NCBI RefSeq assembly: GCF_023055435.1
Contig: NW_025963857.1
Coordinates: 23,436,001 to 23,500,000 of the forward strand
Length of the DNA stretch: 64,000 bases
Source of the DNA: Haliotis rufescens
Taxonomy: Eukaryota
Reading direction: 5' to 3'
Below are positions 1-24,526 of this stretch, piece by piece; position 1 is the first letter of the stretch; each line of letters starts with the position of its first letter. Under the pieces are notes generated by a model. That model worked only from the letters and a program-made list of their open reading frames with translations. It was not told where the DNA came from and made no database searches. The position numbers and the translations under genes were made by a program.

Positions 1-147
1 TACACATGCGAGCTGGTATCCATGAACATCGATTAAGGAAGTACAAGACAACGTATATAAAGGTGGCAAACAGACACACTCTCTCTGGCATCGTCGAACT
101 GCATTTCAAACAGTCCTCGATACTCAATGTTTAACCTATATTATTTA

Positions 148-313
148 GGGGCGGTCGGGTAGCCTAGTGGTTAAAGCGTTCGCTCGTTACGCCGAAGACA
201 CGGGTTCGATTTCCGACATGGGTACAATGTGTGTAGCCCATTGCTGGTGTCCCCCGCCGTGATATTGCTGGAATATTGCTAAAAGTGGCGTAAAACCATA
301 CTCACTCACTCAC
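148..313 (+). mobile_element. tRNA-derived SINE with (CACT)n tail and 14-bp TSD, one per unit
   Basis: Starts GGGGCGG. A-box TAGCCTAGTGG at 160-170, B-box-like GGTTCGATTTCC at 203-214, tail ACTCACTCACTCAC. The flanking direct repeat TTTAACCTATATTA lies at 130-143 and 314-327. Other copies start at 4613, 9078, 13543, 18008, 22473, 34370, 38833, 43307, 47763, 52219, 56675 and 61131. Confidence 0.9.
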
Positions 314-919
314 TTTAACCTATATTAAGTAAATATTCGATAATGGTCTGAAAAGTGTGTATCCAGTAAATATATGATGTGGGAGCAACATACATCAGAC
401 ATTATAATGCATCTGTGTGATACGACATAACATGAGACCAGAAAACTGACGCAATACACCAGTACAGCCTCGCCACAGTACAGCAGTAGCACTGTACCAC
501 ACGAGGTCAACTATGCTAACCGTTTCCGTGTAATACAGCAGCCTGCTCACAAGAAAATAGCTTCTGCTGAATATACTGCAGAAGTCCCCAGATACTACAT
601 TATTCTCCCCGAATTTTATTTATCTTACTGCACAATAACTATAAACTACAACAGCTTTATTTCCTAACTGAAAGGGACATATATTGGTTTCTTCTCACAA
701 AGGGACTGTCACTATGAATACTCACAACACCTTTATATGTGTGTAGTATCTGTTAAAAGCCGAAAGTACACCAGTGTCTTCTGAAAACATGATTGACATA
801 TGAACAACAGCTTGTTTTCTCGTCTTTGTTGACTTGTCTTTGTATGTGTTTGTGACGGTAGAACCGATGGGGCAGGATACGCTTACTTTTTGGCAACCGC
901 CAGGTATCATCACTATCTG

Positions 920-1189
920 GTTGGTTAGTTGGTTGGTTGGTTGTTTAACGCTGCACTCAGCAATATATTACTGCTATATGACGGCGGTCTGTAAATAATC
1001 GAGTCTGGACCAGACAATCCAGTGATTAAAATCATTAGCATCGATCCACCCAATTGGGATCGATGACATGCATCAACCAAGTCAGCGAGCCTGACCACCC
1101 GATCCCGTTAGTCGCCTTTTACGACAAGCATAGTCACCTTTTACGGCAAGCATGGGTTGCTGAAGACCTATATATTCTACCCCGGAATC
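920..1189 (-). mobile_element. Second SINE-like retroposon with (AACC)n tail, 9-bp TSD and no visible tRNA head, one per unit
   Basis: (GGTT)n run at 920-943 is the 3' tail on the minus strand. The flanking direct repeat CACTATCTG lies at 911-919 and 1190-1198. Its 3' end resembles that of the other SINE. Other copies start at 5385, 9850, 14315, 18780, 23245, 35142, 39605, 44079, 48535, 52991, 57447 and 61903. Confidence 0.8.
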
Positions 1190-3271
1190 CACTATCTGAT
1201 AGTCATTCATACGCACATGCTTGTGATCATTATAGTCGGAATCGTACAATGGTCTCTGCTTCGAGCAGAGCTTTCGAATGATTCTGAAAAGGGTTTTGTG
1301 GCGTTTATTTGCAACTGCGTTTCTTGAGAGAACTCTCTTATCTTCAACATATCATCTTGATAATTGTACACTTCATTATCAAGGAATTTGTGATAATACG
1401 AGCATCACTAAATTTGATATCTCAACTTTTAAAGATAACGCCTGAATATTGATATAATAATCATTCAATGATGACCCTTTAACTACATAAATCGTCAACG
1501 ACAGAGAATATTCAGGCTCGATTATCTGTTGAAACAGATTTCATTGGGTGTAAAAGGCAAGATTGTGCTAAAATGTATACTGAATATCAGTGATGTCACC
1601 AGGTGTTAGTGAATAGTTCATATTTGTTGGATGTTTCATGAGCTCCTCCGTCCGTTCCATCGTGTGCCAAATTGGGAGAATGTTGTCTTTTGACAATGTC
1701 TCAGCCATTCATACTTTTGCATATATACTTAATCACTGTTGCAAATAACTCACTTTAACGTGTTTTAATCTTCGGCTGAGTCTTAGGTCGTAAACATTAG
1801 AAGAAAGTATATAAATCGTCTCTACCCTTTACGTATGCCCTTGACATGATGAAGCAGTAGTGATAGTGATGATTGTGTTCTTTTAAGTCGTGTTTAGACC
1901 AAAACTCTTACCAAGAATAAAACACGCGCAAATCAGTTTGACAATGTGTAACTATATAAGGGTTGCCCAGAAAAACCGTACATCTAAAAGTAAAGACGTG
2001 TGTTTTCAGAAGAAAATGCTCTTAAAGTATAACACAAAGGTGTTTTCAAAGATAGACATGATCAAACGACTTGTTTTTACAGTCTGGTTGTTGTTATAAA
2101 GACTTATGACACGCTTTAAAGTTGGACCATTTATTCCGCTGAATTTCACTCTCTACAGTTACCAAATGCAATCTCCTTTGTATTGATAAATGATTGTCAC
2201 TTCTGCTTTGTAATCAAACAATAGGGATATATTAGCTATTTGTTTGTTCATTGTAATCTTCAATCCTACCAATCCAGTTCGGAATCTTCAAATTCGCGCT
2301 CTGATTTAATCAATATGTATTTTACAAATAGCGCCTACAGGGAAGGTGGTTAGTAAACACACAACTAAATATCTATATAGATACTTCTCCTATTAATTAC
2401 ATAAGCAGTATGCAAAATGTTAAATTGCATCATCAAATCAAGAAGTACATGTTTCATGGAAATTACAAATAATTCGTAGTTTGATAAGCTATACCCGGAC
2501 AAGCGTATTTAATAGATACTTTTGAATTCAATCGTTTTGTTTGTGTAATTGATAACCTGTAAAGATATGTTATTGTCATGGAAATTCCAACTGTATGCAT
2601 TCCCTTCTAACCAAAGCAGTAAGAATCTTGCAACATTTGTTTTGATGCTCTACATCACTATGGCTTTCGGGTTTGTTTTATTGCAGCAGCTCAGATATTA
2701 TTTATACAAAGCGCCATAACAACATGTAGATTGTATTCTGAATACAACTTTCGCTCATTTTCAAGGACAGCGCACACATTTGCATTTCAATACAGTGCAC
2801 ACTGTCTACCCCTTGATACCGTCAATGACTGCTTTGACAAAAATTGACACGCCTGCTTATTTGTTTCGCTGCATGTTTTTAAAATGCAAATTGAAATACA
2901 GACAGCCAATTCCAGATATTATGGTACTTCAAATGGCCATCAAACCCTTTCCTGGCAGCCCAAATGATACATTCCCGTGAAACATGAACTCGGGTAAGTG
3001 ACATTTGGTGGGAGATATATCAAGCATAAAATCCCTCCTCTTATCATCATGTCCGGTTTCCTCAGGAACTTAATAGCACATTTCAGTAGTTGATATCTTA
3101 GCTAGCAGTAAAACGCAATATCATTGAAGTGTGCTTGGATATTGGTCGACAACACGTACTATGTCCAGAGTTTACAATATGGAGAAACATAGATCACTCT
3201 TCCATTGTGAACATTCAATTCAGATTAAGATTTTCAAACAAATTTCAAGGCGTAAATAAATATGACAAGAT

Positions 3272-3277
3272 TTTATT
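3272..3277 (-). terminator. AATAAA polyadenylation signal of the Gly-rich gene (same position in each unit)
   Basis: AATAAA lies ~65 nt downstream of the predicted spliced stop codon at 3345-3343. Confidence 0.7.
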
Positions 3278-3342
3278 GAACCAATTCCATTGGTTTGAGA
3301 AAATACATAAATAGCCAGCATCACACTGCAGGTGATAATAAC

Positions 3343-3959
3343 TCAATAATAGCCGATACCTGAAACAAAAAAATAGTAGAATAAAGTTGGGATGTATGGA
3401 TAAGTCACAACGAAGTCTTGAAACTAGCTGCATGATAAACTATACCAAATATTAGAGAAAGCAGAGAATAGTTTTAAAGATGTTTTGTAAATGTCATCAG
3501 CTTTGTCGCTGAAAATAGTAATACCACATAGGTAAATTATGCAATTTTGCAAACGAGACTGGAGGTATATTTACGGATACGATAAACAAATGATATCATA
3601 TTTTGTGAAATACCTTTTCCCAATCCAATTCCGTATCCTCCCATTCCGTAGAGACCACCATAGCCCCCGAGTCCTCCGTACAGACCTCCCATGCCGTATC
3701 CGTATTTGCCTCCGTATAGACCTCCCATGCCTCCGTATATACCTCCCATGCCTCCGTATAGACCTCCCATGCCTCCGTATAGACCTCCATAGCCTCCAAG
3801 ACCTCCAAGACCTCCAAGGCCTCCGTACAATCCACCCATTCCGTAGCCAATTCCGCCCAGTCCTCCTTTCAACCCGCCAATTCCACCATACAGACCGGTA
3901 GGCTCGGCAAAGGCGGTAACAGCCAGGCAGGCAACAAGAGCGGCGACTATCTTCATCAT
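3343..3959 (-). CDS. Secreted Gly/Tyr-rich repetitive protein, copy 1, 120 aa; complement(join(3343..3359,3614..3959))
   Basis: Hydrophobic signal peptide MMKIVAALVACLAVTAFA with an A-x-A cleavage motif, then GGLYGGM/GGL/GGY repeats. Donor AAAG|GTATTT at 3614/3613 and acceptor TTTTTTTGTTTCAG|G at 3360/3359 give in-frame GIGYY-stop. An acceptor also lies 9 nt upstream of the ATG. Confidence 0.9.
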
Positions 3960-4325
3960 TTTGAGTATCTATTGAGTAACGGGAAAATTATTGTCAAGAA
4001 AGGTAAAATAGCATGTTATCGTTACTCATCTGGTAAATTCAGTTCACACCACTCATTGTGAATTATGTTATCAGTTTTGCTTTCACCCGCATTCATATAT
4101 TTCTCAATTTACAAGAACGTCTTATGTTACATATTCGGACTTTTATGAATTGGCTCAACATAAAGATTGAAAACAGCCTGATGCGCAGCAGATGAATCAA
4201 AAATTAAAAGTATACATATATATCACAAGCAAAATTTAAATTAGTACTTGCAGTTTGGTCTTTACTCGTATCTGTGTCTCAACGGCAGGTGAAGATAAGA
4301 GATGATGGAACAGTTTCCCCCGTCC

Positions 4326-4335
4326 TTTATATATA
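4326..4335 (-). promoter_or_regulatory. TATA box of the Gly-rich gene; predicted TSS ~4303 and a short non-coding exon 1 (same in each unit)
   Basis: The minus strand reads TATATATAAAGG, with an Inr-like TCATCT ~30 nt downstream. Candidate donors are GA|GTAAAG (4266/4265) or AA|GTACTA (4248/4247). The acceptor TTTTCCCGTTACTCAATAG|A is at 3969/3968. Confidence 0.7.
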
Positions 4336-7300
4336 CCATTTGTGAATTATACGTGATTGATTTACCTTGGGCTGACCACTTCCAGGTAAGTAACGCACCT
4401 CAGCTTAATGGTGTAAAGTAAGCATTCTTTTCGCATCAAAGGGCCCGAGGTTATCACCCTACGGGTACACATGCGAGCTGGTATCCATGAACATCGATTA
4501 AGGAAGTACAAGACAACGTATATAAAGGTGGCAAACAGACACACTCTCTCTGGCATCGTCGAACTGCATTTCAAACAGTCCTCGATACTCAATGTTTAAC
4601 CTATATTATTTAGGGGCGGTCGGGTAGCCTAGTGGTTAAAGCGTTCGCTCGTTACGCCGAAGACACGGGTTCGATTTCCGACATGGGTACAATGTGTGTA
4701 GCCCATTGCTGGTGTCCCCCGCCGTGATATTGCTGGAATATTGCTAAAAGTGGCGTAAAACCATACTCACTCACTCACTTTAACCTATATTAAGTAAATA
4801 TTCGATAATGGTCTGAAAAGTGTGTATCCAGTAAATATATGATGTGGGAGCAACATACATCAGACATTATAATGCATCTGTGTGATACGACATAACATGA
4901 GACCAGAAAACTGACGCAACACACCAGTACAGCCTCGCCACAGTACAGCAGTAGCACTGTACCACACGAGGTCAACTATGCTAACCGTTTCCGTGTAATA
5001 CAGCAGCCTGCTCACAAGAAAATAGCTTCTGCTGAATATACTGCAGAAGTCCCCAGATACTACATTATTCTCCCCGAATTTTATTTATCTTACTGCACAA
5101 TAACTATAAACTACAACAGCTTTATTTCCTAACTGAAAGGGACATATATTGGTTTCTTCTCACAAAGGGACTGTCACTATGAATACTCACAACACCTTTA
5201 TATGTGTGTAGTATCTGTTAAAAGCCGAAAGTACACCAGTGTCTTCTGAAAACATGATTGACATATGAACAACAGCTTGTTTTCTCGTCTTTGTTGACTT
5301 GTCTTTGTATGTGTTTGTGACGGTAGAACCGATGGGGCAGGATACGCTTACTTTTTGGCAACCGCCAGGTATCATCACTATCTGGTTGGTTAGTTGGTTG
5401 GTTGGTTGTTTAACGCTGCACTCAGCAATATATTACTGCTATATGACGGCGGTCTGTAAATAATCGAGTCTGGACCAGACAATCCAGTGATTAAAATCAT
5501 TAGCATCGATCCACCCAATTGGGATCGATGACATGCATCAACCAAGTCAGCGAGCCTGACCACCCGATCCCGTTAGTCGCCTTTTACGACAAGCATAGTC
5601 ACCTTTTACGGCAAGCATGGGTTGCTGAAGACCTATATATTCTACCCCGGAATCCACTATCTGATAGTCATTCATACGCACATGCTTGTGATCATTATAG
5701 TCGGAATCGTACAATGGTCTCTGCTTCGAGCAGAGCTTTCGAATGATTCTGAAAAGGGTTTTGTGGCGTTTATTTGCAACTGCGTTTCTTGAGAGAACTC
5801 TCTTATCTTCAACATATCATCTTGATAATTGTACACTTCATTATCAAGGAATTTGTGATAATACGAGCATCACTAAATTTGATATCTCAACTTTTATAGA
5901 TAACGCCTGAATATTGATATAATAATCATTCAATGATGACCCTTCAACTACATAAATCGTCAACGACAGAGAATATTCAGGCTCGATTATCTGTTGAAAC
6001 AGATTTCATTGGGTGTAAAAGGCAAGATTGTGCTAAAATGTATACTGAATATCAGTGATGTCACCAGGTGTTAGTGAATAGTTCATATTTGTTGGATGTT
6101 TCATGAGCTCCTCCGTCCGTTCCATCGTGTGCCAAATTGGGAGAATGTTGTCTTTTGACAATGTCTCAGCCATTCATACTTTTGCATATATACTTAATCA
6201 CTGTTGCAAATAACTCACTTTAACGTGTTTTAATCTTCGGCTGAGTCTTAGGTCGTAAACATTAGAAGAAAGTATATAAATCGTCTCTACCCTTTACGTA
6301 TGCCCTTGACATGATGAAGCAGTAGTGATAGTGATGATTGTGTTCTTTTAAGTCGTGTTTAGACCAAAACTCTTACCAAGAATAAAACACGCGCAAATCA
6401 GTTTGACAATGTGTAACTATATAAGGGTTGCCCAGAAAAACCGTACATCTAAAAGTAAAGACGTGTGTTTTCAGAAGAAAATGCTCTTAAAGTATAACAC
6501 AAAGGTGTTTTCAAAGATAGACATGATCAAACGACTTGTTTTTACAGTCTGGTTGTTGTTATAAAGACTTATGACACGCTTTAAAGTTGGACCATTTATT
6601 CCGCTGAATTTCACTCTCTACAGTTACCAAATGCAATCTCCTTTGTATTGATAAATGATTGTCACTTCTGCTTTGTAATCAAACAATAGGGATATATTAG
6701 CTATTTGTTTGTTCATTGTAATCTTCAATCCTACCAATCCAGTTCGGAATCTTCAAATTCGCGCTCTGATTTAATCAATATGTATTTTACAAATAGCGCC
6801 TACAGGGAAGGTGGTTAGTAAACACACAACTAAATATCTATATAGATACTTCTCCTATTAATTACATAAGCAGTATGCAAAATGTTAAATTGCATCATCA
6901 AATCAAGAAGTACATGTTTGATGGAAATTACAAATAATTCGTAGTTTGATAAGCTATACCCGGACAAGCGTATTTAATAGATACTTTTGAATTCAATCGT
7001 TTTGTTTGTGTAATTGATAAACTGTAAAGATATGTTATTGTCATGGAAATTCCAACTGTATGCATTCCCTTCTAACCAAAGCAGTAAGAATCTTGCAACA
7101 TTTGTTTTGATGCTCTACATCACTATGGCTTTCGGGTTTGTTTTATTGCAGCAGCTCAGATATTATTTATACAAAGCGCCATAACAACATGTAGATTGTA
7201 TTCTGAATACAACTTTCGCTCATTTTCAAGGACAGCGCACACATTTGCATTTCAATACAGTGCACACTGTCTACCCCTTGATACCGTCAATGACTGCTTT

Positions 7301-7807
7301 GACAAAAATTGACACGCCTGCTTATTTGTTTCGCTGCATGTTTTTAAAATGCAAATTGAAATACAGACAGCCAATTCCAGATATTATGGTACTTCAAATG
7401 GCCATCAAACCCTTTCCTGGCAGCCCAAATGATACATTCCCGTGAAACATGAACTCGGGTAAGTGACATTTGGTGGGAGATATATCAAGCATAAAATCCC
7501 TCCTCTTATCATCATGTCCGGTTTCCTCAGGAACTTAATAGCACATTTCAGTAGTTGATATCTTAGCTAGCAGTAAAACGCAATATCATTGAAGTGTGCT
7601 TGGATATTGGTCGACAACACGTACTATGTCCAGAGTTTACAATATGGAGAAACATAGATCACTCTTCCATTGTGAACATTCAATTCAGATTAAGATTTTC
7701 AAACAAATTTCAAGGCGTAAATAAATATGACAAGATTTTATTGAACCAATTCCATTGGTTTGAGAAAATACATAAATAGCCAGCATCACACTGCAGGTGA
7801 TAATAAC

Positions 7808-8424
7808 TCAATAATAGCCGATACCTGAAACAAAAAAATAGTAGAATAAAGTTGGGATGTATGGATAAGTCACAACGAAGTCTTGAAACTAGCTGCATGA
7901 TAAACTATACCAAATATTAGAGAAAGCAGAGAATAGTTTTAAAGATGTTTTGTAAATGTCATCAGCTTTGTCGCTGAAAATAGTAATACCACATAGGTAA
8001 ATTATGCAATTTTGCAAACGAGACTGGAGGTATATTTACGGATACGATAAACAAATGATATCATATTTTGTGAAATACCTTTTCCCAATCCAATTCCGTA
8101 TCCTCCCATTCCGTAGAGACCACCATAGCCCCCGAGTCCTCCGTACAGACCTCCCATGCCGTATCCGTATTTGCCTCCGTATAGACCTCCCATGCCTCCG
8201 TATATACCTCCCATGCCTCCGTATAGACCTCCCATGCCTCCGTATAGACCTCCATAGCCTCCAAGACCTCCAAGACCTCCAAGGCCTCCGTACAATCCAC
8301 CCATTCCGTAGCCAATTCCGCCCAGTCCTCCTTTCAACCCGCCAATTCCACCATACAGACCGGTAGGCTCGGCAAAGGCGGTAACAGCCAGGCAGGCAAC
8401 AAGAGCGGCGACTATCTTCATCAT
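7808..8424 (-). CDS. Secreted Gly/Tyr-rich protein, copy 2, 120 aa; exons 8079..8424 and 7808..7824
   Basis: Same protein and splice sites as copy 1, offset +4465. Confidence 0.9.
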
Positions 8425-11400
8425 TTTGAGTATCTATTGAGTAACGGGAAAATTATTGTCAAGAAAGGTAAAATAGCATGTTATCGTTACTCATCTGGTA
8501 AATTCAGTTCACACCACTCATTGTGAATTATGTTATCAGTTTTGCTTTCACCCGCATTCATATATTTCTCAATTTACAAGAACGTCTTATGTTACATATT
8601 CGGACTTTTATGAATTGGCTCAACATAAAGATTGAAAACAGCCTGATGCGCAGCAGATGAATCAAAAATTAAAAGTATACATATATATCACAAGCAAAAT
8701 TTAAATTAGTACTTGCAGTTTGGTCTTTACTCGTATCTGTGTCTCAACGGCAGGTGAAGATAAGAGATGATGGAACAGTTTCCCCCGTCCTTTATATATA
8801 CCATTTGTGAATTATACGTGATTGATTTACCTTGGGCTGACCACTTCCAGGTAAGTAACACACCTCAGCTTAATGGTGTAAAGTAAGCATTCTTTTCGCA
8901 TCAAAGGGCCCGAGGTTATCACCCTACGGGTACACATGCGAGCTGGTATCCATGAACATCGATTAAGGAAGTACAAGACAACGTATATAAAGGTGGCAAA
9001 CAGACACACTCTCTCTGGCATCGTCGAACTGCATTTCAAACAGTCCTCGATACTCAATGTTTAACCTATATTATTTAGGGGCGGTCGGGTAGCCTAGTGG
9101 TTAAAGCGTTCGCTCGTTACGCCGAAGACACGGGTTCGATTTCCGACATGGGTACAATGTGTGTAGCCCATTGCTGGTGTCCCCCGCCGTGATATTGCTG
9201 GAATATTGCTAAAAGTGGCGTAAAACCATACTCACTCACTCACTTTAACCTATATTAAGTAAATATTCGATAATGGTCTGAAAAGTGTGTATCCAGTAAA
9301 TATATGATGTGGGAGCAACATACATCAGACATTATAATGCATCTGTGTGATACGACATAACATGAGACCAGAAAACTGACGCAACACACCAGTACAGCCT
9401 CGCCACAGTACAGCAGTAGCACTGTACCACACGAGGTCAACTATGCTAACCGTTTCCGTGTAATACAGCAGCCTGCTCACAAGAAAATAGCTTCTGCTGA
9501 ATATACTGCAGAAGTCCCCAGATACTACATTATTCTCCCCGAATTTTATTTATCTTACTGCACAATAACTATAAACTACAACAGCTTTATTTCCTAACTG
9601 AAAGGGACATATATTGGTTTCTTCTCACAAAGGGACTGTCACTATGAATACTCACAACACCTTTATATGTGTGTAGTATCTGTTAAAAGCCGAAAGTACA
9701 CCAGTGTCTTCTGAAAACATGATTGACATATGAACAACAGCTTGTTTTCTCGTCTTTGTTGACTTGTCTTTGTATGTGTTTGTGACGGTAGAACCGATGG
9801 GGCAGGATACGCTTACTTTTTGGCAACCGCCAGGTATCATCACTATCTGGTTGGTTAGTTGGTTGGTTGGTTGTTTAACGCTGCACTCAGCAATATATTA
9901 CTGCTATATGACGGCGGTCTGTAAATAATCGAGTCTGGACCAGACAATCCAGTGATTAAAATCATTAGCATCGATCCACCCAATTGGGATCGATGACATG
10001 CATCAACCAAGTCAGCGAGCCTGACCACCCGATCCCGTTAGTCGCCTTTTACGACAAGCATAGTCACCTTTTACGGCAAGCATGGGTTGCTGAAGACCTA
10101 TATATTCTACCCCGGAATCCACTATCTGATAGTCATTCATACGCACATGCTTGTGATCATTATAGTCGGAATCGTACAATGGTCTCTGCTTCGAGCAGAG
10201 CTTTCGAATGATTCTGAAAAGGGTTTTGTGGCGTTTATTTGCAACTGCGTTTCTTGAGAGATCTCTCTTATCTTCAACATATCATCTTGATAATTGTACA
10301 CTTCATTATCAAGGAATTTGTGATAATACGAGCATCACTAAATTTGATATCTCAACTTTTATAGATAACGCCTGAATATTGATATAATAATCATTCAATG
10401 ATGACCCTTTAACTACATAAATCGTCAACGACAGAGAATATTCAGGCTCGATTATCTGTTGAAACAGATTTCATTGGGTGTAAAAGGCAAGATTGTGCTA
10501 AAATGTATACTGAATATCAGTGATGTCACCAGGTGTTAGTGAATAGTTCATATTTGTTGGATGTTTCATGAGCTCCTCCGTCCGTTCCATCGTGTGCCAA
10601 ATTGGGAGAATGTTGTCTTTTGACAATGTCTCAGCCATTCATACTTTTGCATATATACTTAATCACTGTTGCAAATAACTCACTTTAACGTGTTTTAATC
10701 TTCGGCTGAGTCTTAGGTCGTAAACATTAGAAGAAAGTATATAAATCGTCTCTACCCTTTACGTATGCCCTTGACATGATGAAGCAGTAGTGATAGTGAT
10801 GATTGTGTTCTTTTAAGTCGTGTTTAGACCAAAACTCTTACCAAGAATAAAACACGCGCAAATCAGTTTGACAATGTGTAACTATATAAGGGTTGCCCAG
10901 AAAAACCGTACATCTAAAAGTAAAGACGTGTGTTTTCAGAAGAAAATGCTCTTAAAGTATAACACAAAGGTGTTTTCAAAGATAGACATGATCAAACGAC
11001 TTGTTTTTACAGTCTGGTTGTTGTTATAAAGACTTATGACACGCTTTAAAGTTGGACCATTTATTCCGCTGAATTTCACTCTCTACAGTTACCAAATGCA
11101 ATCTCCTTTGTATTGATAAATGATTGTCACTTCTGCTTTGTAATCAAACAATAGGGATATATTAGCTATTTGTTTGTTCATTGTAATCTTCAATCCTACC
11201 AATCCAGTTCGGAATCTTCAAATTCGCGCTCTGATTTAATCAATATGTATTTTACAAATAGCGCCTACAGGGAAGGTGGTTAGTAAACACACAACTAAAT
11301 ATCTATATAGATACTTCTCCTATTAATTACATAAGCAGTATGCAAAATGTTAAATTGCATCATCAAATCAAGAAGTACATGTTTGATGGAAATTACAAAT

Positions 11401-12272
11401 AATTCGTAGTTTGATAAGCTATACCCGGACAAGCGTATTTAATAGATACTTTTGAATTCAATCGTTTTGTTTGTGTAATTGATAAACTGTAAAGATATGT
11501 TATTGTCATGGAAATTCCAACTGTATGCATTCCCTTCTAACCAAAGCAGTAAGAATCTTGCAACATTTGTTTTGATGCTCTACATCACTATGGCTTTCGG
11601 GTTTGTTTTATTGCAGCAGCTCAGATATTATTTATACAAAGCGCCATAACAACATGTAGATTGTATTCTGAATACAACTTTCGCTCATTTTCAAGGACAG
11701 CGCACACATTTGCATTTCAATACAGTGCACACTGTCTACCCCTTGATACCGTCAATGACTGCTTTGACAAAAATTGACACGCCTGCTTATTTGTTTCGCT
11801 GCATGTTTTTAAAATGCAAATTGAAATACAGACAGCCAATTCCAGATATTATGGTACTTCAAATGGCCATCAAACCCTTTCCTGGCAGCCCAAATGATAC
11901 ATTCCCGTGAAACATGAACTCGGGTAAGTGACATTTGGTGGGAGATATATCAAGCATAAAATCCCTCCTCTTATCATCATGTCCGGTTTCCTCAGGAACT
12001 TAATAGCACATTTCAGTAGTTGATATCTTAGCTAGCAGTAAAACGCAATATCATTGAAGTGTGCTTGGATATTGGTCGACAACACGTACTATGTCCAGAG
12101 TTTACAATATGGAGAAACATAGATCACTCTTCCATTGTGAACATTCAATTCAGATTAAGATTTTCAAACAAATTTCAAGGCGTAAATAAATATGACAAGA
12201 TTTTATTGAACCAATTCCATTGGTTTGAGAAAATACATAAATAGCCAGCATCACACTGCAGGTGATAATAAC

Positions 12273-12889
12273 TCAATAATAGCCGATACCTGAAACAAAA
12301 AAATAGTAGAATAAAGTTGGGATGTATGGATAAGTCACAACGAAGTCTTGAAACTAGCTGCATGATAAACTATACCAAATATTAGAGAAAGCAGAGAATA
12401 GTTTTAAAGATGTTTTGTAAATGTCATCAGCTTTGTCGCTGAAAATAGTAATACCACATAGGTAAATTATGCAATTTTGCAAACGAGACTGGAGGTATAT
12501 TTACGGATACGATAAACAAATGATATCATATTTTGTGAAATACCTTTTCCCAATCCAATTCCGTATCCTCCCATTCCGTAGAGACCACCATAGCCCCCGA
12601 GTCCTCCGTACAGACCTCCCATGCCGTATCCGTATTTGCCTCCGTATAGACCTCCCATGCCTCCGTATATACCTCCCATGCCTCCGTATAGACCTCCCAT
12701 GCCTCCGTATAGACCTCCATAGCCTCCAAGACCTCCAAGACCTCCAAGGCCTCCGTACAATCCACCCATTCCGTAGCCAATTCCGCCCAGTCCTCCTTTC
12801 AACCCGCCAATTCCACCATACAGACCGGTAGGCTCGGCAAAGGCGGTAACAGCCAGGCAGGCAACAAGAGCGGCGACTATCTTCATCAT
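12273..12889 (-). CDS. Secreted Gly/Tyr-rich protein, copy 3, 120 aa; exons 12544..12889 and 12273..12289
   Basis: Same protein and splice sites as copy 1. Confidence 0.9.
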
Positions 12890-15800
12890 TTTGAGTATCT
12901 ATTGAGTAACGGGAAAATTATTGTCAAGAAAGGTAAAATAGCATGTTATCGTTACTCATCTGGTAAATTCAGTTCACACCACTCATTGTGAATTATGTTA
13001 TCAGTTTTGCTTTCACCCGCATTCATATATTTCTCAATTTACAAGAACGTCTTATGTTACATATTCGGACTTTTATGAATTGGCTCAACATAAAGATTGA
13101 AAACAGCCTGATGCGCAGCAGATGAATCAAAAATTAAAAGTATACATATATATCACAAGCAAAATTTAAATTAGTACTTGCAGTTTGGTCTTTACTCGTA
13201 TCTGTGTCTCAACGGCAGGTGAAGATAAGAGATGATGGAACAGTTTCCCCCGTCCTTTATATATACCATTTGTGAATTATACGTGATTGATTTACCTTGG
13301 GCTGACCACTTCCAGGTAAGTAACACACCTCAGCTTAATGGTGTAAAGTAAGCATTCTTTTCGCATCAAAGGGCCCGAGGTTATCACCCTACGGGTACAC
13401 ATGCGAGCTGGTATCCATGAACATCGATTAAGGAAGTACAAGACAACGTATATAAAGGTGGCAAACAGACACACTCTCTCTGGCATCGTCGAACTGCATT
13501 TCAAACAGTCCTCGATACTCAATGTTTAACCTATATTATTTAGGGGCGGTCGGGTAGCCTAGTGGTTAAAGCGTTCGCTCGTTACGCCGAAGACACGGGT
13601 TCGATTTCCGACATGGGTACAATGTGTGTAGCCCATTGCTGGTGTCCCCCGCCGTGATATTGCTGGAATATTGCTAAAAGTGGCGTAAAACCATACTCAC
13701 TCACTCACTTTAACCTATATTAAGTAAATATTCGATAATGGTCTGAAAAGTGTGTATCCAGTAAATATATGATGTGGGAGCAACATACATCAGACATTAT
13801 AATGCATCTGTGTGATACGACATAACATGAGACCAGAAAACTGACGCAACACACCAGTACAGCCTCGCCACAGTACAGCAGTAGCACTGTACCACACGAG
13901 GTCAACTATGCTAACCGTTTCCGTGTAATACAGCAGCCTGCTCACAAGAAAATAGCTTCTGCTGAATATACTGCAGAAGTCCCCAGATACTACATTATTC
14001 TCCCCGAATTTTATTTATCTTACTGCACAATAACTATAAACTACAACAGCTTTATTTCCTAACTGAAAGGGACATATATTGGTTTCTTCTCACAAAGGGA
14101 CTGTCACTATGAATACTCACAACACCTTTATATGTGTGTAGTATCTGTTAAAAGCCGAAAGTACACCAGTGTCTTCTGAAAACATGATTGACATATGAAC
14201 AACAGCTTGTTTTCTCGTCTTTGTTGACTTGTCTTTGTATGTGTTTGTGACGGTAGAACCGATGGGGCAGGATACGCTTACTTTTTGGCAACCGCCAGGT
14301 ATCATCACTATCTGGTTGGTTAGTTGGTTGGTTGGTTGTTTAACGCTGCACTCAGCAATATATTACTGCTATATGACGGCGGTCTGTAAATAATCGAGTC
14401 TGGACCAGACAATCCAGTGATTAAAATCATTAGCATCGATCCACCCAATTGGGATCGATGACATGCATCAACCAAGTCAGCGAGCCTGACCACCCGATCC
14501 CGTTAGTCGCCTTTTACGACAAGCATAGTCACCTTTTACGGCAAGCATGGGTTGCTGAAGACCTATATATTCTACCCCGGAATCCACTATCTGATAGTCA
14601 TTCATACGCACATGCTTGTGATCATTATAGTCGGAATCGTACAATGGTCTCTGCTTCGAGCAGAGCTTTCGAATGATTCTGAAAAGGGTTTTGTGGCGTT
14701 TATTTGCAACTGCGTTTCTTGAGAGATCTCTCTTATCTTCAACATATCATCTTGATAATTGTACACTTCATTATCAAGGAATTTGTGATAATACGAGCAT
14801 CACTAAATTTGATATCTCAACTTTTATAGATAACGCCTGAATATTGATATAATAATCATTCAATGATGACCCTTTAACTACATAAATCGTCAACGACAGA
14901 GAATATTCAGGCTCGATTATCTGTTGAAACAGATTTCATTGGGTGTAAAAGGCAAGATTGTGCTAAAATGTATACTGAATATCAGTGATGTCACCAGGTG
15001 TTAGTGAATAGTTCATATTTGTTGGATGTTTCATGAGCTCCTCCGTCCGTTCCATCGTGTGCCAAATTGGGAGAATGTTGTCTTTTGACAATGTCTCAGC
15101 CATTCATACTTTTGCATATATACTTAATCACTGTTGCAAATAACTCACTTTAACGTGTTTTAATCTTCGGCTGAGTCTTAGGTCGTAAACATTAGAAGAA
15201 AGTATATAAATCGTCTCTACCCTTTACGTATGCCCTTGACATGATGAAGCAGTAGTGATAGTGATGATTGTGTTCTTTTAAGTCGTGTTTAGACCAAAAC
15301 TCTTACCAAGAATAAAACACGCGCAAATCAGTTTGACAATGTGTAACTATATAAGGGTTGCCCAGAAAAACCGTACATCTAAAAGTAAAGACGTGTGTTT
15401 TCAGAAGAAAATGCTCTTAAAGTATAACACAAAGGTGTTTTCAAAGATAGACATGATCAAACGACTTGTTTTTACAGTCTGGTTGTTGTTATAAAGACTT
15501 ATGACACGCTTTAAAGTTGGACCATTTATTCCGCTGAATTTCACTCTCTACAGTTACCAAATGCAATCTCCTTTGTATTGATAAATGATTGTCACTTCTG
15601 CTTTGTAATCAAACAATAGGGATATATTAGCTATTTGTTTGTTCATTGTAATCTTCAATCCTACCAATCCAGTTCGGAATCTTCAAATTCGCGCTCTGAT
15701 TTAATCAATATGTATTTTACAAATAGCGCCTACAGGGAAGGTGGTTAGTAAACACACAACTAAATATCTATATAGATACTTCTCCTATTAATTACATAAG

Positions 15801-16737
15801 CAGTATGCAAAATGTTAAATTGCATCATCAAATCAAGAAGTACATGTTTGATGGAAATTACAAATAATTCGTAGTTTGATAAGCTATACCCGGACAAGCG
15901 TATTTAATAGATACTTTTGAATTCAATCGTTTTGTTTGTGTAATTGATAAACTGTAAAGATATGTTATTGTCATGAAAATTCCAACGGTATGCATTCCCT
16001 TCTAACCAAAGCAGTAAGAATCTTGCAACATTTGTTTTGATGCTCTACATCACTATGGCTTTCGGGTTTGTTTTATTGCAGCAGCTCAGATATTATTTAT
16101 ACAAAGCGCCATAACAACATGTAGATTGTATTCTGAATACAACTTTCGCTCATTTTCAAGGACAGCGCACACATTTGCATTTCAATACAGTGCACACTGT
16201 CTACCCCTTGATACCGTCAATGACTGCTTTGACAAAAATTGACACGCCTGCTTATTTGTTTCGCTGCATGTTTTTAAAATGCAAATTGAAATACAGACAG
16301 CCAATTCCAGATATTATGGTACTTCAAATGGCCATCAAACCCTTTCCTGGCAGCCCAAATGATACATTCCCGTGAAACATGAACTCGGGTAAGTGACATT
16401 TGGTGGGAGATATATCAAGCATAAAATCCCTCCTCTTATCATCATGTCCGGTTTCCTCAGGAACTTAATAGCACATTTCAGTAGTTGATATCTTAGCTAG
16501 CAGTAAAACGCAATATCATTGAAGTGTGCTTGGATATTGGTCGACAACACGTACTATGTCCAGAGTGTACAATATGGAGAAACATAGATCACTCTTCCAT
16601 TGTGAACATTCAATTCAGATTAAGATTTTCAAACAAATTTCAAGGCGTAAATAAATATGACAAGATTTTATTGAACCAATTCCATTGGTTTGAGAAAATA
16701 CATAAATAGCCAGCATCACACTGCAGGTGATAATAAC

Positions 16738-17354
16738 TCAATAATAGCCGATACCTGAAACAAAAAAATAGTAGAATAAAGTTGGGATGTATGGATAAGT
16801 CACAACGAAGTCTTGAAACTAGCTGCATGATAAACTATACCAAATATTAGAGAAAGCAGAGAATAGTTTTAAAGATGTTTTGTAAATGTCATCAGCTTTG
16901 TCGCTGAAAATAGTAATACCACATAGGTAAATTATGCAATTTTGCAAACGAGACTGGAGGTATATTTACGGATACGATAAACAAATGATATCATATTTTG
17001 TGAAATACCTTTTCCCAATCCAATTCCGTATCCTCCCATTCCGTAGAGACCACCATAGCCCCCGAGTCCTCCGTACAGACCTCCCATGCCGTATCCGTAT
17101 TTGCCTCCGTATAGACCTCCCATGCCTCCGTATATACCTCCCATGCCTCCGTATAGACCTCCCATGCCTCCGTATAGACCTCCATAGCCTCCAAGACCTC
17201 CAAGACCTCCAAGGCCTCCGTACAATCCACCCATTCCGTAGCCAATTCCGCCCAGTCCTCCTTTCAACCCGCCAATTCCACCATACAGACCGGTAGGCTC
17301 GGCAAAGGCGGTAACAGCCAGGCAGGCAACAAGAGCGGCGACTATCTTCATCAT
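16738..17354 (-). CDS. Secreted Gly/Tyr-rich protein, copy 4, 120 aa; exons 17009..17354 and 16738..16754
   Basis: Same protein and splice sites as copy 1. Confidence 0.9.
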
Positions 17355-20300
17355 TTTGAGTATCTATTGAGTAACGGGAAAATTATTGTCAAGAAAGGTA
17401 AAATAGCATGTTATCGTTACTCATCTGGTAAATTCAGTTCACACCACTCATTGTGAATTATGTTATCAGTTTTGCTTTCACCCGCATTCATATATTTCTC
17501 AATTTACAAGAACGTCTTATGTTACATATTCGGACTTTTATGAATTGGCTCAACATAAAGATTGAAAACAGCCTGATGCGCAGCAGATGAATCAAAAATT
17601 AAAAGTATACATATATATCACAAGCAAAATTTAAATTAGTACTTGCAGTTTGGTCTTTACTCGTATCTGTGTCTCAACGGCAGGTGAAGATAAGAGATGA
17701 TGGAACAGTTTCCCCCGTCCTTTATATATACCATTTGTGAATTATACGTGATTGATTTACCTTGGGCTGACCACTTCCAGGTAAGTAACGCACCTCAGCT
17801 TAATGGTGTAAAGTAAGCATTCTTTTCGCATCAAAGGGCCCGAGGTTATCACCCTACGGGTACACATGCGAGCTGGTATCCATGAACATCGATTAAGGAA
17901 GTACAAGACAACGTATATAAAGGTGGCAAACAGACACACTCTCTCTGGCATCGTCGAACTGCATTTCAAACAGTCCTCGATACTCAATGTTTAACCTATA
18001 TTATTTAGGGGCGGTCGGGTAGCCTAGTGGTTAAAGCGTTCGCTCGTTACGCCGAAGACACGGGTTCGATTTCCGACATGGGTACAATGTGTGTAGCCCA
18101 TTGCTGGTGTCCCCCGCCGTGATATTGCTGGAATATTGCTAAAAGTGGCGTAAAACCATACTCACTCACTCACTTTAACCTATATTAAGTAAATATTCGA
18201 TAATGGTCTGAAAAGTGTGTATCCAGTAAATATATGATGTGGGAGCAACATACATCAGACATTATAATGCATCTGTGTGATACGACATAACATGAGACCA
18301 GAAAACTGACGCAACACACCAGTACAGCCTCGCCACAGTACAGCAGTAGCACTGTACCACACGAGGTCAACTATGCTAACCGTTTCCGTGTAATACAGCA
18401 GCCTGCTCACAAGAAAATAGCTTCTGCTGAATATACTGCAGAAGTCCCCAGATACTACGTTATTCTCCCCGAATTTTATTTATCTTACTGCACAATAACT
18501 ATAAACTACAACAGCTTTATTTCCTAACTGAAAGGGACATATATTGGTTTCTTCTCACAAAGGGACTGTCACTATGAATACTCACAACACCTTTATATGT
18601 GTGTAGTATCTGTTAAAAGCCGAAAGTACACCAGTGTCTTCTGAAAACATGATTGACATATGAACAACAGCTTGTTTTCTCGTCTTTGTTGACTTGTCTT
18701 TGTATGTGTTTGTGACGGTAGAACCGATGGGGCAGGATACGCTTACTTTTTGGCAACCGCCAGGTATCATCACTATCTGGTTGGTTAGTTGGTTGGTTGG
18801 TTGTTTAACGCTGCACTCAGCAATATATTACTGCTATATGACGGCGGTCTGTAAATAATCGAGTCTGGACCAGACAATCCAGTGATTAAAATCATTAGCA
18901 TCGATCCACCCAATTGGGATCGATGACATGCATCAACCAAGTCAGCGAGCCTGACCACCCGATCCCGTTAGTCGCCTTTTACGACAAGCATAGTCACCTT
19001 TTACGGCAAGCATGGGTTGCTGAAGACCTATATATTCTACCCCGGAATCCACTATCTGATAGTCATTCATACGCACATGCTTGTGATCATTATAGTCGGA
19101 ATCGTACAATGGTCTCTGCTTCGAGCAGAGCTTTCGAATGATTCTGAAAAGGGTTTTGTGGCGTTTATTTGCAACTGCGTTTCTTGAGAGAACTCTCTTA
19201 TCTTCAACATATCATCTTGATAATTGTACACTTCATTATCAAGGAATTTGTGATAATACGAGCATCACTAAATTTGATATCTCAACTTTTATAGATAACG
19301 CCTGAATATTGATATAATAATCATTCAATGATGACCCTTTAACTACATAAATCGTCAACGACAGAGAATATTCAGGCTCGATTATCTGTTGAAACAGATT
19401 TCATTGGGTGTAAAAGGCAAGATTGTGCTAAAATGTATACTGAATATCAGTGATGTCACCAGGTGTTAGTGAATAGTTCATATTTGTTGGATGTTTCATG
19501 AGCTCCTCCGTCCGTTCCATCGTGTGCCAAATTGGGAGAATGTTGTCTTTTGACAATGTCTCAGCCATTCATACTTTTGCATATATACTTAATCACTGTT
19601 GCAAATAACTCACTTTAACGTGTTTTAATCTTCGGCTGAGTCTTAGGTCGTAAACATTAGAAGAAAGTATATAAATCGTCTCTACCCTTTACGTATGCCC
19701 TTGACATGATGAAGCAGTAGTGATAGTGATGATTGTGTTCTTTTAAGTCGTGTTTAGACCAAAACTCTTACCAAGAATAAAACACGCGCAAATCAGTTTG
19801 ACAATGTGTAACTATATAAGGGTTGCCCAGAAAAACCGTACATCTAAAAGTAAAGACGTGTGTTTTCAGAAGAAAATGCTCTTAAAGTATAACACAAAGG
19901 TGTTTTCAAAGATAGACATGATCAAACGACTTGTTTTTACAGTCTGGTTGTTGTTATAAAGACTTATGACACGCTTTAAAGTTGGACCATTTATTCCGCT
20001 GAATTTCACTCTCTACAGTTACCAAATGCAATCTCCTTTGTATTGATAAATGATTGTCACTTCTGCTTTGTAATCAAACAATAGGGATATATTAGCTATT
20101 TGTTTGTTCATTGTAATCTTCAATCCTACCAATCCAGTTCGGAATCTTCAAATTCGCGCTCTGATTTAATCAATATGTATTTTACAAATAGCGCCTACAG
20201 GGAAGGTGGTTAGTAAACACACAACTAAATATCTATATAGATACTTCTCCTATTAATTCCATAAGCAGTATGCAAAATGTTAAATTGCATCATCAAATCA

Positions 20301-21202
20301 AGAAGTACATGTTTGATGGAAATTACAAATAATTCGTAGTTTGATAAGCTATACCCGGACAAGCGTATTTAATAGATACTTTTGAATTCAATCGTTTTGT
20401 TTGTGTAATTGATAAACTGTAAAGATATGTTATTGTCATGGAAATTCCAACTGTATGCATTCCCTTCTAACCAAAGCAGTAAGAATCTTGCAACATTTGT
20501 TTTGATGCTCTACATCACTATGGCTTTCGGGTTTGTTTTATTGCAGCAGCTCAGATATTATTTATACAAAGCGCCATAACAACATGTAGATTGTATTCTG
20601 AATACAACTTTCGCTCATTTTCAAGGACAGCGCACACATTTGCATTTCAATACAGTGCACACTGTCTACCCCTTGATACCGTCAATGACTGCTTTGACAA
20701 AAATTGACACGCCTGCTTATTTGTTTCGCTGCATGTTTTTAAAATGCAAATTGAAATACAGACAGCCAATTCCAGATATTATGGTACTTCAAATGGCCAT
20801 CAAACCCTTTCCTGGCAGCCCAAATGATACATTCCCGTGAAACATGAACTCGGGTAAGTGACATTTGGTGGGAGATATATCAAGCATAAAATCCCTCCTC
20901 TTATCATCATGTCCGGTTTCCTCAGGAACTTAATAGCACATTTCAGTAGTTGATATCTTAGCTAGCAGTAAAACGCAATATCATTGAAGTGTGCTTGGAT
21001 ATTGGTCGACAACACGTACTATGTCCAGAGTTTACAATACGGAGAAACATAGATCACTCTTCCATTGTGAACATTCAATTCAGATTAAGATTTTCAAACA
21101 AATTTCAAGGCGTAAATAAATATGACAAGATTTTATTGAACCAATTCCATTGGTTTGAGAAAATACATAAATAGCCAGCATCACACTGCAGGTGATAATA
21201 AC

Positions 21203-21819
21203 TCAATAATAGCCGATACCTGAAACAAAAAAATAGTAGAAAAAAGTTGGGATGTATGGATAAGTCACAACGAAGTCTTGAAACTAGCTGCATGATAAAC
21301 TATACCAAATATTAGAGAAAGCAGAGAATAGTTTTAAAGATGTTTTGTAAATGTCATCAGCTTTGTCGCTGAAAATAGTAATACCACATAGGTAAATTAT
21401 GCAATTTTGCAAACGAGACTGGAGGTATATTTACGGATACGATAAACAAATGATATCATATTTTGTGAAATACCTTTTCCCAATCCAATTCCGTATCCTC
21501 CCATTCCGTAGAGACCACCATAGCCCCCGAGTCCTCCGTACAGACCTCCCATGCCGTATCCGTATTTGCCTCCGTATAGACCTCCCATGCCTCCGTATAT
21601 ACCTCCCATGCCTCCGTATAGACCTCCCATGCCTCCGTATAGACCTCCATAGCCTCCAAGACCTCCAAGACCTCCAAGGCCTCCGTACAATCCACCCATT
21701 CCGTAGCCAATTCCGCCCAGTCCTCCTTTCAACCCGCCAATTCCACCATACAGACCGGTAGGCTCGGCAAAGGCGGTAACAGCCAGGCAGGCAACAAGAG
21801 CGGCGACTATCTTCATCAT
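21203..21819 (-). CDS. Secreted Gly/Tyr-rich protein, copy 5, 120 aa; exons 21474..21819 and 21203..21219
   Basis: Same protein and splice sites as copy 1. Confidence 0.9.
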
Positions 21820-24122
21820 TTTGAGTATCTATTGAGTAACGGGAAAATTATTGTCAAGAAAGGTAAAATAGCATGTTATCGTTACTCATCTGGTAAATTC
21901 AGTTCACACCACTCATTGTGAATTATGTTATCAGTTTTGCTTTCACCCGCATTCATATATTTCTCAATTTACAAGAACGTCTTATGTTACATATTCGGAC
22001 TTTTATGAATTGGCTCAACATAAAGATTGAAAACAGCCTGATGCGCAGCAGATGAATCAAAAATTAAAAGTATACATATATATCACAAGCAAAATTTAAA
22101 TTAGTACTTGCAGTTTGGTCTTTACTCGTATCTGTGTCTCAACGGCAGGTGAAGATAAGAGATGATGGAACAGTTTCCCCCGTCCTTTATATATACCATT
22201 TGTGAATTATACGTGATTGATTTACCTTGGGCTGACCACTTCCAGGTAAGTAACGCACCTCAGCTTAATGGTGTAAAGTAAGCATTCTTTTCGCATCAAA
22301 GGGCCCGAGGTTATCACCCTACGGGTACACATGCGAGCTGGTATCCATGAACATCGATTAAGGAAGTACAAGACAACGTATATAAAGGTGGCAAACAGAC
22401 ACACTCTCTCTGGCATCGTCGAACTGCATTTCAAACAGTCCTCGATACTCAATGTTTAACCTATATTATTTAGGGGCGGTCGGGTAGCCTAGTGGTTAAA
22501 GCGTTCGCTCGTTACGCCGAAGACACGGGTTCGATTTCCGACATGGGTACAATGTGTGTAGCCCATTGCTGGTGTCCCCCGCCGTGATATTGCTGGAATA
22601 TTGCTAAAAGTGGCGTAAAACCATACTCACTCACTCACTTTAACCTATATTAAGTAAATATTCGATAATGGTCTGAAAAGTGTGTATCCAGTAAATATAT
22701 GATGTGGGAGCAACATACATCAGACATTATAATGCATCTGTGTGATACGACATAACATGAGACCAGAAAACTGACGCAACACACCAGTACAGCCTCGCCA
22801 CAGTACAGCAGTAGCACTGTACCACACGAGGTCAACTATGCTAACCGTTTCCGTGTAATACAGCAGCCTGCTCACAAGAAAATAGCTTCTGCTGAATATA
22901 CTGCAGAAGTCCCCAGATACTACATTATTCTCCCCGAATTTTATTTATCTTACTGCACAATAACTATAAACTACAACAGCTTTATTTCCTAACTGAAAGG
23001 GACATATATTGGTTTCTTCTCACAAAGGGACTGTCACTATGAATACTCACAACACCTTTATATGTGTGTAGTATCTGTTAAAAGCCGAAAGTACACCAGT
23101 GTCTTCTGAAAACATGATTGACATATGAACAACAGCTTGTTTTCTCGTCTTTGTTGACTTGTCTTTGTATGTGTTTGTGACGGTAGAACCGATGGGGCAG
23201 GATACGCTTACTTTTTGGCAACCGCCAGGTATCATCACTATCTGGTTGGTTAGTTGGTTGGTTGGTTGTTTAACGCTGCACTCAGCAATATATTACTGCT
23301 ATATGACGGCGGTCTGTAAATAATCGAGTCTGGACCAGACAATCCAGTGATTAAAATCATTAGCATCGATCCACCCAATTGGGATCGATGACATGCATCA
23401 ACCAAGTCAGCGAGCCTGACCACCCGATCCCGTTAGTCGCCTTTTACGACAAGCATAGTCACCTTTTACGGCAAGCATGGGTTGCTGAAGACCTATATAT
23501 TCTACCCCGGAATCCACTATCTGATAGTCATTCATACGCACATGCTTGTGATCATTATAGTCGGAATCGTACAATGGTCTCTGCTTCGAGCAGAGCTTTC
23601 GAATGATTCTGAAAAGGGTTTTGTGGCGTTTATTTGCAACTGCGTTTCTTGAGAGAACTCTCTTATCTTCAACATATCATCTTGATAATTGTTCACTTCA
23701 TTATCAAGGAATTTGTGATAATACGAGCATCACTAAATTTGATATCTCAACTTTTATAGATAACGCCTGAATATTGATATAATAATCATTCAATGATGAC
23801 CCTTTAACTACATAAATCGTCAACGACAGAGAATATTCAGCCTCGATTATCTGTTGAAACAGATTTCATTGGGTGTAAAAGGCAAGATTGTGCTAAAATG
23901 TATACTGAATATCAGTGATGTCACCAGGTGTTAGTGAATAGTTCATATTTGTTGGATGTTTCATGAGCTCCTCCGTCCGTTCCATCGTGTGCCAAATTGG
24001 GAGAATGTTGTCTTTTGACAATGTCTCAGCCATTCATACTTTTGCATATATACTTAATCACTGTTGCAAATAACTCACTTTAACGTGTTTTAATCTTCGG
24101 CTGAGTCTTAGGTCGTAAACAT

Positions 24123-24349: not shown

Positions 24350-24526
24350 ATTCCAACACTCGCCGTATCGCATTTACACAATCGCGACCTTTTCGCCGAT
24401 TATGCTTTGAATACCACCTATTCCAGCACTCGCCGTATCGCATTTATTCCGTTCTACTCCCGAACTTCACCCTCGGGACAATTTTACGCTTGTGGAATAC
24501 CAACTCACCACCTCGACCTTTTCGTA

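Follow-up and report, generated by a model that had tools for sequence, protein, structure and literature searches.

Tandem gene families of the dosage type, such as histone repeats, silkmoth chorion genes and gene-bearing macrosatellites, are arranged head to tail, are homogeneous within a species and carry divergent copies at the edges. Among secreted proteins of molluscs, Has-tsfgr1 of abalone is, according to the accessible part of its description, 114 aa in length with a 17-aa leader, contains more than 52% Gly and ends in Tyr, and carries 11 repeats, mostly GGYGLGL, and a C-terminal GYKGY (PMC2034539). The same part of that paper describes high-level expression in larvae and absence in large animals, localization at the shell-field edge and the outer mantle fold, and the building of the abalone larval shell in about 10 h (PMC2034539). 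As far as the accessible parts of the respective papers go, the shematrins of Pinctada are mantle proteins that are secreted, repetitive and rich in Gly and that end in Tyr (PMC2034539, PMC4759782, PMC4897951); shell-protein genes are tandemly duplicated to a handful of copies, for which a role in dosage was suggested (PMC4759782); the M2 motifs of suckerins are GYG, GGY and GGLY (PMC11931252), and the suckerin peptide GLYGGYGV (GV8) forms a gel in water via Tyr stacking (PMC6839752); and Lstag-sfc-6, -7 and -8 of Lymnaea stagnalis are secreted, Gly/Tyr/Leu-rich proteins with Gly-flanked Tyr that were proposed as mantle-edge peroxidase substrates (PMC6007483).

We analysed a stretch of 64,000 nucleotides from Haliotis rufescens, hereafter referred to as the window, to which all positions refer unless a contig is named. 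A sequence-only reading of this DNA had drawn attention to the composition of one Gly/Tyr-rich protein. The main feature missed in that reading is amplification, as the window consists of gene units arranged head to tail. We confirmed the gene as real; it is undescribed in the literature searched, mostly outside subscription journals, which gave no description of the family or its arrays, and nothing on the window gene was found in the accessible parts of PMC3517415, PMC1676022 and PMC10741955. Its genomic form is more interesting than its composition: known kinds are combined, with a Gly/Tyr-rich secreted mollusc protein being encoded in a dosage-type tandem array.

Gene structure and promoter

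The window gene, described here for its first copy, was found to lie on the minus strand, as do all features in this section, with three exons and a product of 120 aa ending in GKGIGYY, its coding sequence (3959-3614 and 3359-3343) being joined across a 254-nt GT-AG intron. Exon 1 (4252..4305; start site approximate) is untranslated, and its joint with exon 2 (3968/4252) was present in four of the eight public runs described below (X3, X4, X8 and X10), the X10 contig extending to 4313 on the exon 1 side. Intron 1 (3969..4251), a 283-nt intron of the 5'-UTR joined in these four runs, has a GC donor in all 39 copies of the array on contig C79 to which the window belongs, versus a GT donor in all 50 copies on contig C24. 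The GC (4250-4251) follows the exon end ACT. Exon 2 (3614..3968), covered at exon-level depth in X3 and X4, includes a 9-nt UTR, the predicted signal peptide (3959-3906) and the Gly/Leu/Tyr/Met repeats. The 21-bp and 9-bp repeats pointed out in the sequence-only reading were located at 3707-3797 and 3781-3824, respectively; throughout this region (3707..3824) the copy number of the 21-bp (7-aa) and 9-bp (GGL) units differs between genes, and 13 different coding lengths, every one a multiple of 3, were found across all 91 copies. Intron 2 (3360..3613; 254 nt, GT-AG) interrupts a Gly codon in phase 1, and its joint was detected in contigs of three of the eight runs (X3, X9 and X4). Exon 3 (3255..3359; 3' end approximate) holds the last five codons, the stop codon (3345-3343) and the 3'-UTR with AATAAA at 3277-3272, the context of which is kept in 39 of the 39 array copies; depth drops below about 3280 in X3 and X4.

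A TATA box was recognised from the sequence at 4326..4335, with its exact context kept in 37 of the 39 array copies. Upstream of it are located AATCAATCAC (4353..4362), which we take to be a Pbx/Hox-like motif, and, 5' of the TATA box, GGAAGT (4378..4383), presumably ETS-like. The same AATCAATCAC is common to the C79 promoter and two diverged paralogs on contig C190, at similar spacing (about 30 nt before TATA in the C190 genes), and the C24 copy examined differs by one base. GGAAG, which is common to the window (4353-4383) and to the promoters of paralogs on contigs C190, C1 and C57 with similar spacing to TATA, was found within 80 nt upstream of TATA in eight of nine distinct family promoters with a plausible TATA chosen by eye, a post hoc observation to be taken as a lead only.

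The predicted protein

The mature chain of 102 aa, starting after residue 18, is composed of 55 Gly, 16 Tyr, 14 Leu, 6 Met, 5 Ile, 3 Lys and one each of Glu, Pro and Thr (54% Gly, 16% Tyr and 14% Leu); on recount from the spliced coding sequence, the residue counts given earlier were exact. With a mass of 9.4 kDa it is nearly neutral (pI 8.8, net charge +1.5, no Arg). A signal peptide is predicted from an 11-residue Kyte-Doolittle peak of 3.13 and the conserved A-x-A/EP or A/KP junction. The earlier proposal of a secreted (predicted), Gly/Tyr/Leu-rich protein of structural type is supported. The window protein has two exact GGLYGGM, three GG[LI]YGGM, six GGLY and six G[LI]YGGxG motifs; exact GLYGGYG is absent from it and is present once in each C24 copy. 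A Gly neighbour was found for 15 of the 16 Tyr. None of the three published DOPA-substrate motifs fits the window protein with fewer than three mismatches. No Pfam family was detected in any of five family proteins. A single-sequence AlphaFold model (pLDDT 61.8, pTM 0.44) was dismissed, because an all-helix structure is not credible for a chain with 54% Gly.

The sequence-only reading had also compared this protein with known families. Suckerin M2-like motifs without the Ala/His modules are indeed what was found, as GYG, GGY and GGLY are present and the mature chain contains no Ala, Ser, His or Val. Shematrins carry a basic C-terminal peptide of RKKKY type, and the lack of such a tail was borne out by the presence of one Lys and no Arg among the last ten residues. 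The suggestion of a separate family agrees with the finding that the full-length relatives retrieved are all Haliotis proteins with automatic names. The minimal make-up of nine residue types with three spaced Lys turned out not to be a family trait: the C24 copies are without the middle Lys and 28 of the 50 contain His, and the nine-residue composition is not kept in the H. asinina orthologue, which has Ala, His, Phe, Pro, Ser and Val.

Tandem arrays

Within the window we identified 12 gene copies, 99.75-99.92% identical to copy 1 over 3.6 kb, with repeats recurring each 4,456-4,474 bp; one 4,465-bp unit, taken at arbitrary phase (1001..5465) and holding one gene, represents the period of about 4.46 kb. 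The start codons, all on the minus strand, are located at 3959, 8424, 12889, 17354, 21819, 33716, 38179, 42653, 47109, 51565, 56021 and 60477. The whole window (1..64000, minus strand) is part of a 39-copy array at 23,343-23,542 kb of C79, in which all 39 genes are intact and encode 12 protein variants, differing chiefly in repeat number. Neighbouring units differ at just a few sites per 4.4 kb. By a genome search with the start-codon pattern, 91 sites were detected versus none for the control. C79 accounts for 38 of them (a further copy there starts with a variant codon) and C24 for 50, and C190, C423 and C589 have a single site each. The 50 copies on C24 are all intact and are arranged in blocks of 11, 28 and 11, with units about 93-94% identical to the C79 unit. 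The flanks of the C24 and C79 arrays are non-homologous, indicating separate loci; as these flanks have no long match in common, we rejected the reading of C24 as a C79 haplotig. The single copies on C190 and C589 are intact, and broken copies were found on C423 (one) and at 1.353-1.355 Mb of C24 (two).

Each C79 unit contains two dispersed repeats on the plus strand, both flanked by a direct duplication and both missing from the C24 units: a SINE-like repeat (4607..4778), which gave 28 matches in 310 kb of non-array DNA versus none for the control and 39 matches in the array, and a second repeat (5387..5654), which gave 45 matches in the same length of non-array DNA and 40 in the array. The presence of both repeats and of the GC donor in all 39 C79 units, and in none of the C24 units, points to one founder, which appears to have gained two SINE-like insertions and a GT-to-GC donor change.

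One spacer of the window holds a retroelement insertion of 7,432 bp (24124..31555, plus strand; Pfam RVT_1, E 8e-15), in which gag-like and reverse-transcriptase frames are followed by a 1,178-bp unit in tandem. The first 227 bp of the element recur three times inside this tandem tail, a layout presumably like the split direct repeats of Ngaro/DIRS-type elements, and no recombinase frame of at least 120 aa was recognised in it. Other large spacer insertions on C79 are located at 23,403.7-23,414.7 kb and at 23,525.7-23,531.3 kb, the latter with long, LINE-like frames on the minus strand. Outside the array, 47 kb from its end (C79, about 23,296 kb; L005), a 261-codon frame resembles, as judged by eye, the ligand-binding part of a channel of the nicotinic acetylcholine receptor type.

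Concerted evolution and constraint

Over 2.2 kb, divergence within the C79 array was found to rise from 0.53% between neighbours to 2.08% at a distance of 30 units, and for inner copies it was correlated with distance along the array (Spearman 0.69), a value reached in none of 500 permutations. Edge copies are more diverged, although the mean divergence of 8.7% for the first edge copy is inflated by a slice running beyond the array end. Near-uniformity of the copies within a species and difference between species indicate, as judged from the sequences compared, concerted evolution, and this uniformity together with the distance gradient argues against an assembly artefact. The likeness of copies is likely to be kept by unequal crossing-over and gene conversion.

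Variants were counted at 58 unambiguous codons in 91 copies, the p-values that follow being indicative because the copies are not independent. Replacement variants were found at 8 of 129 sites and intron variants at 142 of 529 sites (p 5e-7); silent variants, at 6 of 45 sites, were also fewer than those of introns (p 0.05), and the difference between silent and replacement variants was not significant (p 0.13). For C79 alone, the corresponding values were 2 of 129 replacement sites against 38 of 537 intron sites (p 0.01), with silent variants at none of 45 sites. The first 49 codons are identical in a C79 copy and the C190 single copy, the introns of which differ by 9-10%. In a comparison of window 3959-3813 with this single copy (L061) and C24 copies, the 49 codons are identical including silent sites, and introns are 5-10% apart. 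Since coding variants are scarcer than intron variants and these 49 codons are identical, the coding exon is protected by selection, by exon-limited conversion, or by both. Exon-limited gene conversion between chromosomes is thus a possible process, and the higher conservation of silent sites than of introns implies that part of the coding conservation may be due to such conversion rather than to selection on the protein.

The wider family and its relatives

The family in this genome includes about 91 near-identical genes and about 43 diverged genes with a common exon plan; as the diverged loci were found by search with an H. rubra relative and 150 of 207 candidates were scored, these counts are lower bounds. 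Of the diverged loci, C1 holds an array of 21 copies plus two single genes, C190 and C591 hold nine genes each (intact-looking on C190), and C57 holds two. Full models were made for seven of the nine C591 genes and one of the two C57 genes, and the last exon of the C1 array was modelled in one copy. In modelled genes the leader ends in A-x-A before EP, KP or NP, the acceptor is 9-12 nt upstream of the start codon, the phase-1 intron lies in a Gly codon a few residues past a Lys, and the last exon holds three to seven codons with a YY or HY end. The C1 array (81,309-81,388 kb; L069-L077) is a separate one with a period of about 3.9 kb and encodes an octamer-repeat paralog, and the nine C591 paralogs (477-557 kb; L080, L084-L092) have a leader of 17 aa, repeats that contain Phe, and KYGHY at the end. 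On C190 (6,758-6,906 kb; L061, L064-L067), the window-type single copy lies 120 kb from the nine diverged paralogs, which are partly arranged as divergent pairs. The C190 locus is a candidate for the ancestral locus of the arrays.

The H. asinina orthologue (P0002) has the same N-terminus and last 13 residues as the window protein, to which it is 66% identical. Family members in RefSeq include XP_067657837-849 and XP_067657820 of H. asinina ('glycine-rich protein-like', 'PE_PGRS54-like'), XP_046565582 of H. rubra ('ctenidin-1-like') and XP_071095146/156/135 of H. cracherodii ('shematrin-like protein 2', 'spidroin-1-like'), all matching the window protein in the leader, the EP/KP start and the K-G...YY end. 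Ten accessions in the range from XP_067657837 to 849 are listed on one contig and could include isoforms. The names of these relatives are automatic, no characterisation of them was found in the literature searched, and several are artefactual chains in which tandem copies are joined into one long protein: XP_067657820 is made up of 16 copies of a second variant, each with a leader and 15 of which are identical, and in H. cracherodii the models contain 3, 7 and 2 joined copies of a C1-type paralog. Such chained models with misleading names (PE-PGRS, spidroin, shematrin-like) are P0008, P0009, P0025 and P0026, of 200-1,967 aa. The 1,967-aa H. asinina model was rejected as a real polyprotein, because its linker sits where the end of intron 1 sits in the window gene. 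The tandem arrays thus explain several false RefSeq models of 200-2,000 aa.

A profile search of 1.84 billion proteins gave 19 matches, of which four belong to the Haliotis family and are the sole family matches; in the seven examined among the other 15, similarity was confined to the repeat. Atlas matches for the H. asinina orthologue were all at or below 0.80 and serve as leads only, the nearest clusters being arthropod cuticle-like at 0.77-0.80, the chance level. Pinctada shematrins gave no match in the protein searches, which are limited by low complexity and, for the first two, scored just about 8,000 candidates each.

Expression

Contigs of eight public runs were aligned with the gene. 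Depth is given as summed contig depth, a poor measure of expression; the RNA nature of the runs is an automatic guess, no matching run being recorded as RNA, and the species label of X3, X4 and X8 (organism B) differs from that of the best DNA matches (organism C). Exon bins in X3 and X4 reached 1e5-8e5 versus 140-3,700 for intron bins. For X8, a run of the same study, depth was about 500-2,000 and intron 2 was largely unspliced, and depth was near or below 50 in X2, X5, X9, X10 and X11. This very uneven exon depth between runs suggests a strong, sample-specific burst of the subfamily transcript. At 3666 and 3669, the letters are of C24 type both in contigs of the high-depth runs and in X9's spliced contig, and C79-specific letters were found in no spliced contig among the eight runs. 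The transcripts therefore attest the subfamily and not the C79 array itself. A search of 24 of the 27 supplement files for an adult H. laevigata nacre/prism proteome, the search database of which may have omitted the gene (PMC6003135), gave no family peptide; this absence fits, weakly, a larval or outer-coat role.

Proposed role and alternative explanations

We consider that the approximately 90 near-identical intact copies, encoding a predicted-secreted protein, likely supply a short, huge burst of matrix protein for the larval or juvenile shell coat, a proposal that we give about an even chance of being correct. In our best reading, this would be a matrix protein specific to the lineage and cross-linked through tyrosine, its gene having been amplified for dosage, and it would work in a manner similar to Has-tsfgr1. 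The 18-aa leader would send the chain into secretory granules; the folding-free chain of 9.4 kDa would condense, held together by Tyr-Tyr and Leu/Met/Ile contacts that lie between Gly spacers; once it is released, peroxidase or tyrosinase would act on the Gly-flanked tyrosines, leading to hardening; and, with so many gene copies, sufficient protein could be produced in a matter of hours by a small number of cells of the shell field or mantle edge. We infer the shell coat as the probable site of action from the size, composition and expression of Has-tsfgr1, the expression pattern of which is an analogy only, because its GGYGLGL heptads and GYKGY end are absent from the window protein. A bolder form of this proposal, tentative and clearly short of an even chance, is that the dominant organic protein in the coat of the larval shell is encoded by this gene, amplified in histone style, with about 90 uniform copies and about 43 paralogs of an undescribed family, and that gene conversion limited to exons keeps their coding exons identical between chromosomes. 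Such a family could have escaped notice, as its copies would merge in short-read assemblies, annotation pipelines would join them into false giant proteins, and in proteomes the tanned protein would be almost resistant to trypsin.

The same chemistry and dosage might instead serve another organic hard part or coat, such as the larval operculum, a jaw or radula matrix, a foot cuticle or adhesive, or an egg coat. Gly/Tyr-rich proteins occur in opercula, insect chorion and fluke eggshell, the files of the adult shell proteome gave no family peptide, the high-depth runs carry no tissue record, and the Atlas clusters nearest to the H. asinina orthologue are cuticle-like, though at chance level. We nevertheless regard this alternative as somewhat unlikely, because Has-tsfgr1, the sole characterised abalone protein of such size and composition found, is specific to the shell field and mantle, and the Gly/Tyr/Leu-rich secreted proteins of Lymnaea are mantle specific, according to the accessible parts of both descriptions. 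The protein may also be functional while most copies, including those of C79, are surplus, produced by unequal crossing-over in an array-prone genome with dosage unselected. The lack of spliced contigs with C79-specific letters and the non-canonical GC donor in all 39 C79 copies agree with such surplus, and copies only about 1% apart are young, with little time for decay. Against it, the array copies are intact in 89 of 89 cases and the broken ones are outside the arrays, all three large C79 insertions lie in spacers, and arrays of the family are also present in H. asinina and H. cracherodii and involve at least two subfamilies; we judge it unlikely.

Amplification for defence, of a Gly-rich antimicrobial peptide of mucus or haemocytes resembling ctenidins or armadillidins, is improbable in our estimate. 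Antimicrobial families typically diversify, whereas these copies are homogenised. The automatic names 'ctenidin-1-like' and 'neuropeptide-like protein 31', a similar Gly content with a signal peptide, and a sample-specific abundance that could be induction would be in line with it, but the pI of 8.8, the charge of +1.5 and the absence of Arg differ from armadillidins with a pI of 11-12 (PMC7017220). That one or a few genes were multiplied by an assembly artefact is hardly credible, even though adjoining units are nearly alike, because unit-specific variants follow a positional gradient, diverged edge copies and three unique insertions are present within the array, and independent assemblies of two other species contain chained copies.

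If this protein makes up the bulk of the larval shell coat, it would give the first shell a concrete component open to testing, and its copy number would be a candidate heritable trait. The first-shell stage is the one that hatcheries lose most easily. The GC donors of C79 and the GT donors of C24 provide a natural, array-wide test of the efficiency of GC-AG splicing, and a natural, near-pure GGLY polymer without crystalline modules would let the self-assembly of the suckerin-type 'amorphous' motif be tested.

Comparison with known systems

Has-tsfgr1, the nearest comparator that has been characterised and one that the sequence-only reading did not mention, resembles the window protein, as far as the accessible part of its description goes, in being an abalone protein with a signal peptide, a mature chain of about 100 aa with more than 50% Gly, Gly/Leu/Tyr repeats and a Lys near the C-terminal Tyr. 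In contrast to its GGYGLGL repeats, the window protein has no exact copy of this heptad and one GGYGIGL, one residue off, and it is characterised by GGLYGGM/L repeats and the GKGIGYY end, a comparison made by description only. Has-tsfgr1 as described there and the window gene's orthologue in H. asinina are different proteins, and no amplification of tsfgr1 is reported in the accessible part of PMC2034539. A tandem-heptad pattern of the GGYGLGL type gave no match in the genome, and a GYKGY-stop pattern, blind to an intron inside the motif, gave five matches versus six for the control. The closest local match to the description of Has-tsfgr1 is the C591 type, with its 17-aa leader and one GGYGLGL, but it has the KYGHY end; a search with a C591 paralog retrieved two weak unnamed matches and not Has-tsfgr1.

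The window protein also contains the suckerin M2 motifs (five GYG, three GGY and six GGLY), but, unlike suckerins, it has neither Pro-flanked M1 modules of Ala, Val, Thr, Ser as well as His nor Pro spacers, and the likeness is most likely convergent. With Lstag-sfc-6, -7 and -8 it shares Tyr flanked by Gly, whereas these proteins, in the accessible part of their description, are rich in Asn as well and depart from Waite's DOPA motifs by no more than one mismatch, versus three needed for the window protein. It fits the SilkSlider class (PMC4944945; secreted, at least 25% Gly over 80 residues) with 54% Gly over 102 residues, a descriptive class that does not indicate homology.

Predicted secretion, Gly-rich repeats ending in Tyr and tandem duplication are shared with shematrins. 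The shell-protein clusters described in the literature examined are, however, a handful of diverged genes, exemplified by five shematrins on two scaffolds in diverged orthology groups in the accessible part of PMC4759782, while here a single gene accounts for about 90 near-identical copies. Two further abalone species also have homogenised arrays of this family. The arrays share with dosage-type families the head-to-tail units, the homogeneity within a species and the divergent edge copies, and differ from them in that the unit holds a single gene for a lineage-specific secreted protein and that arrays are located on at least three contigs.
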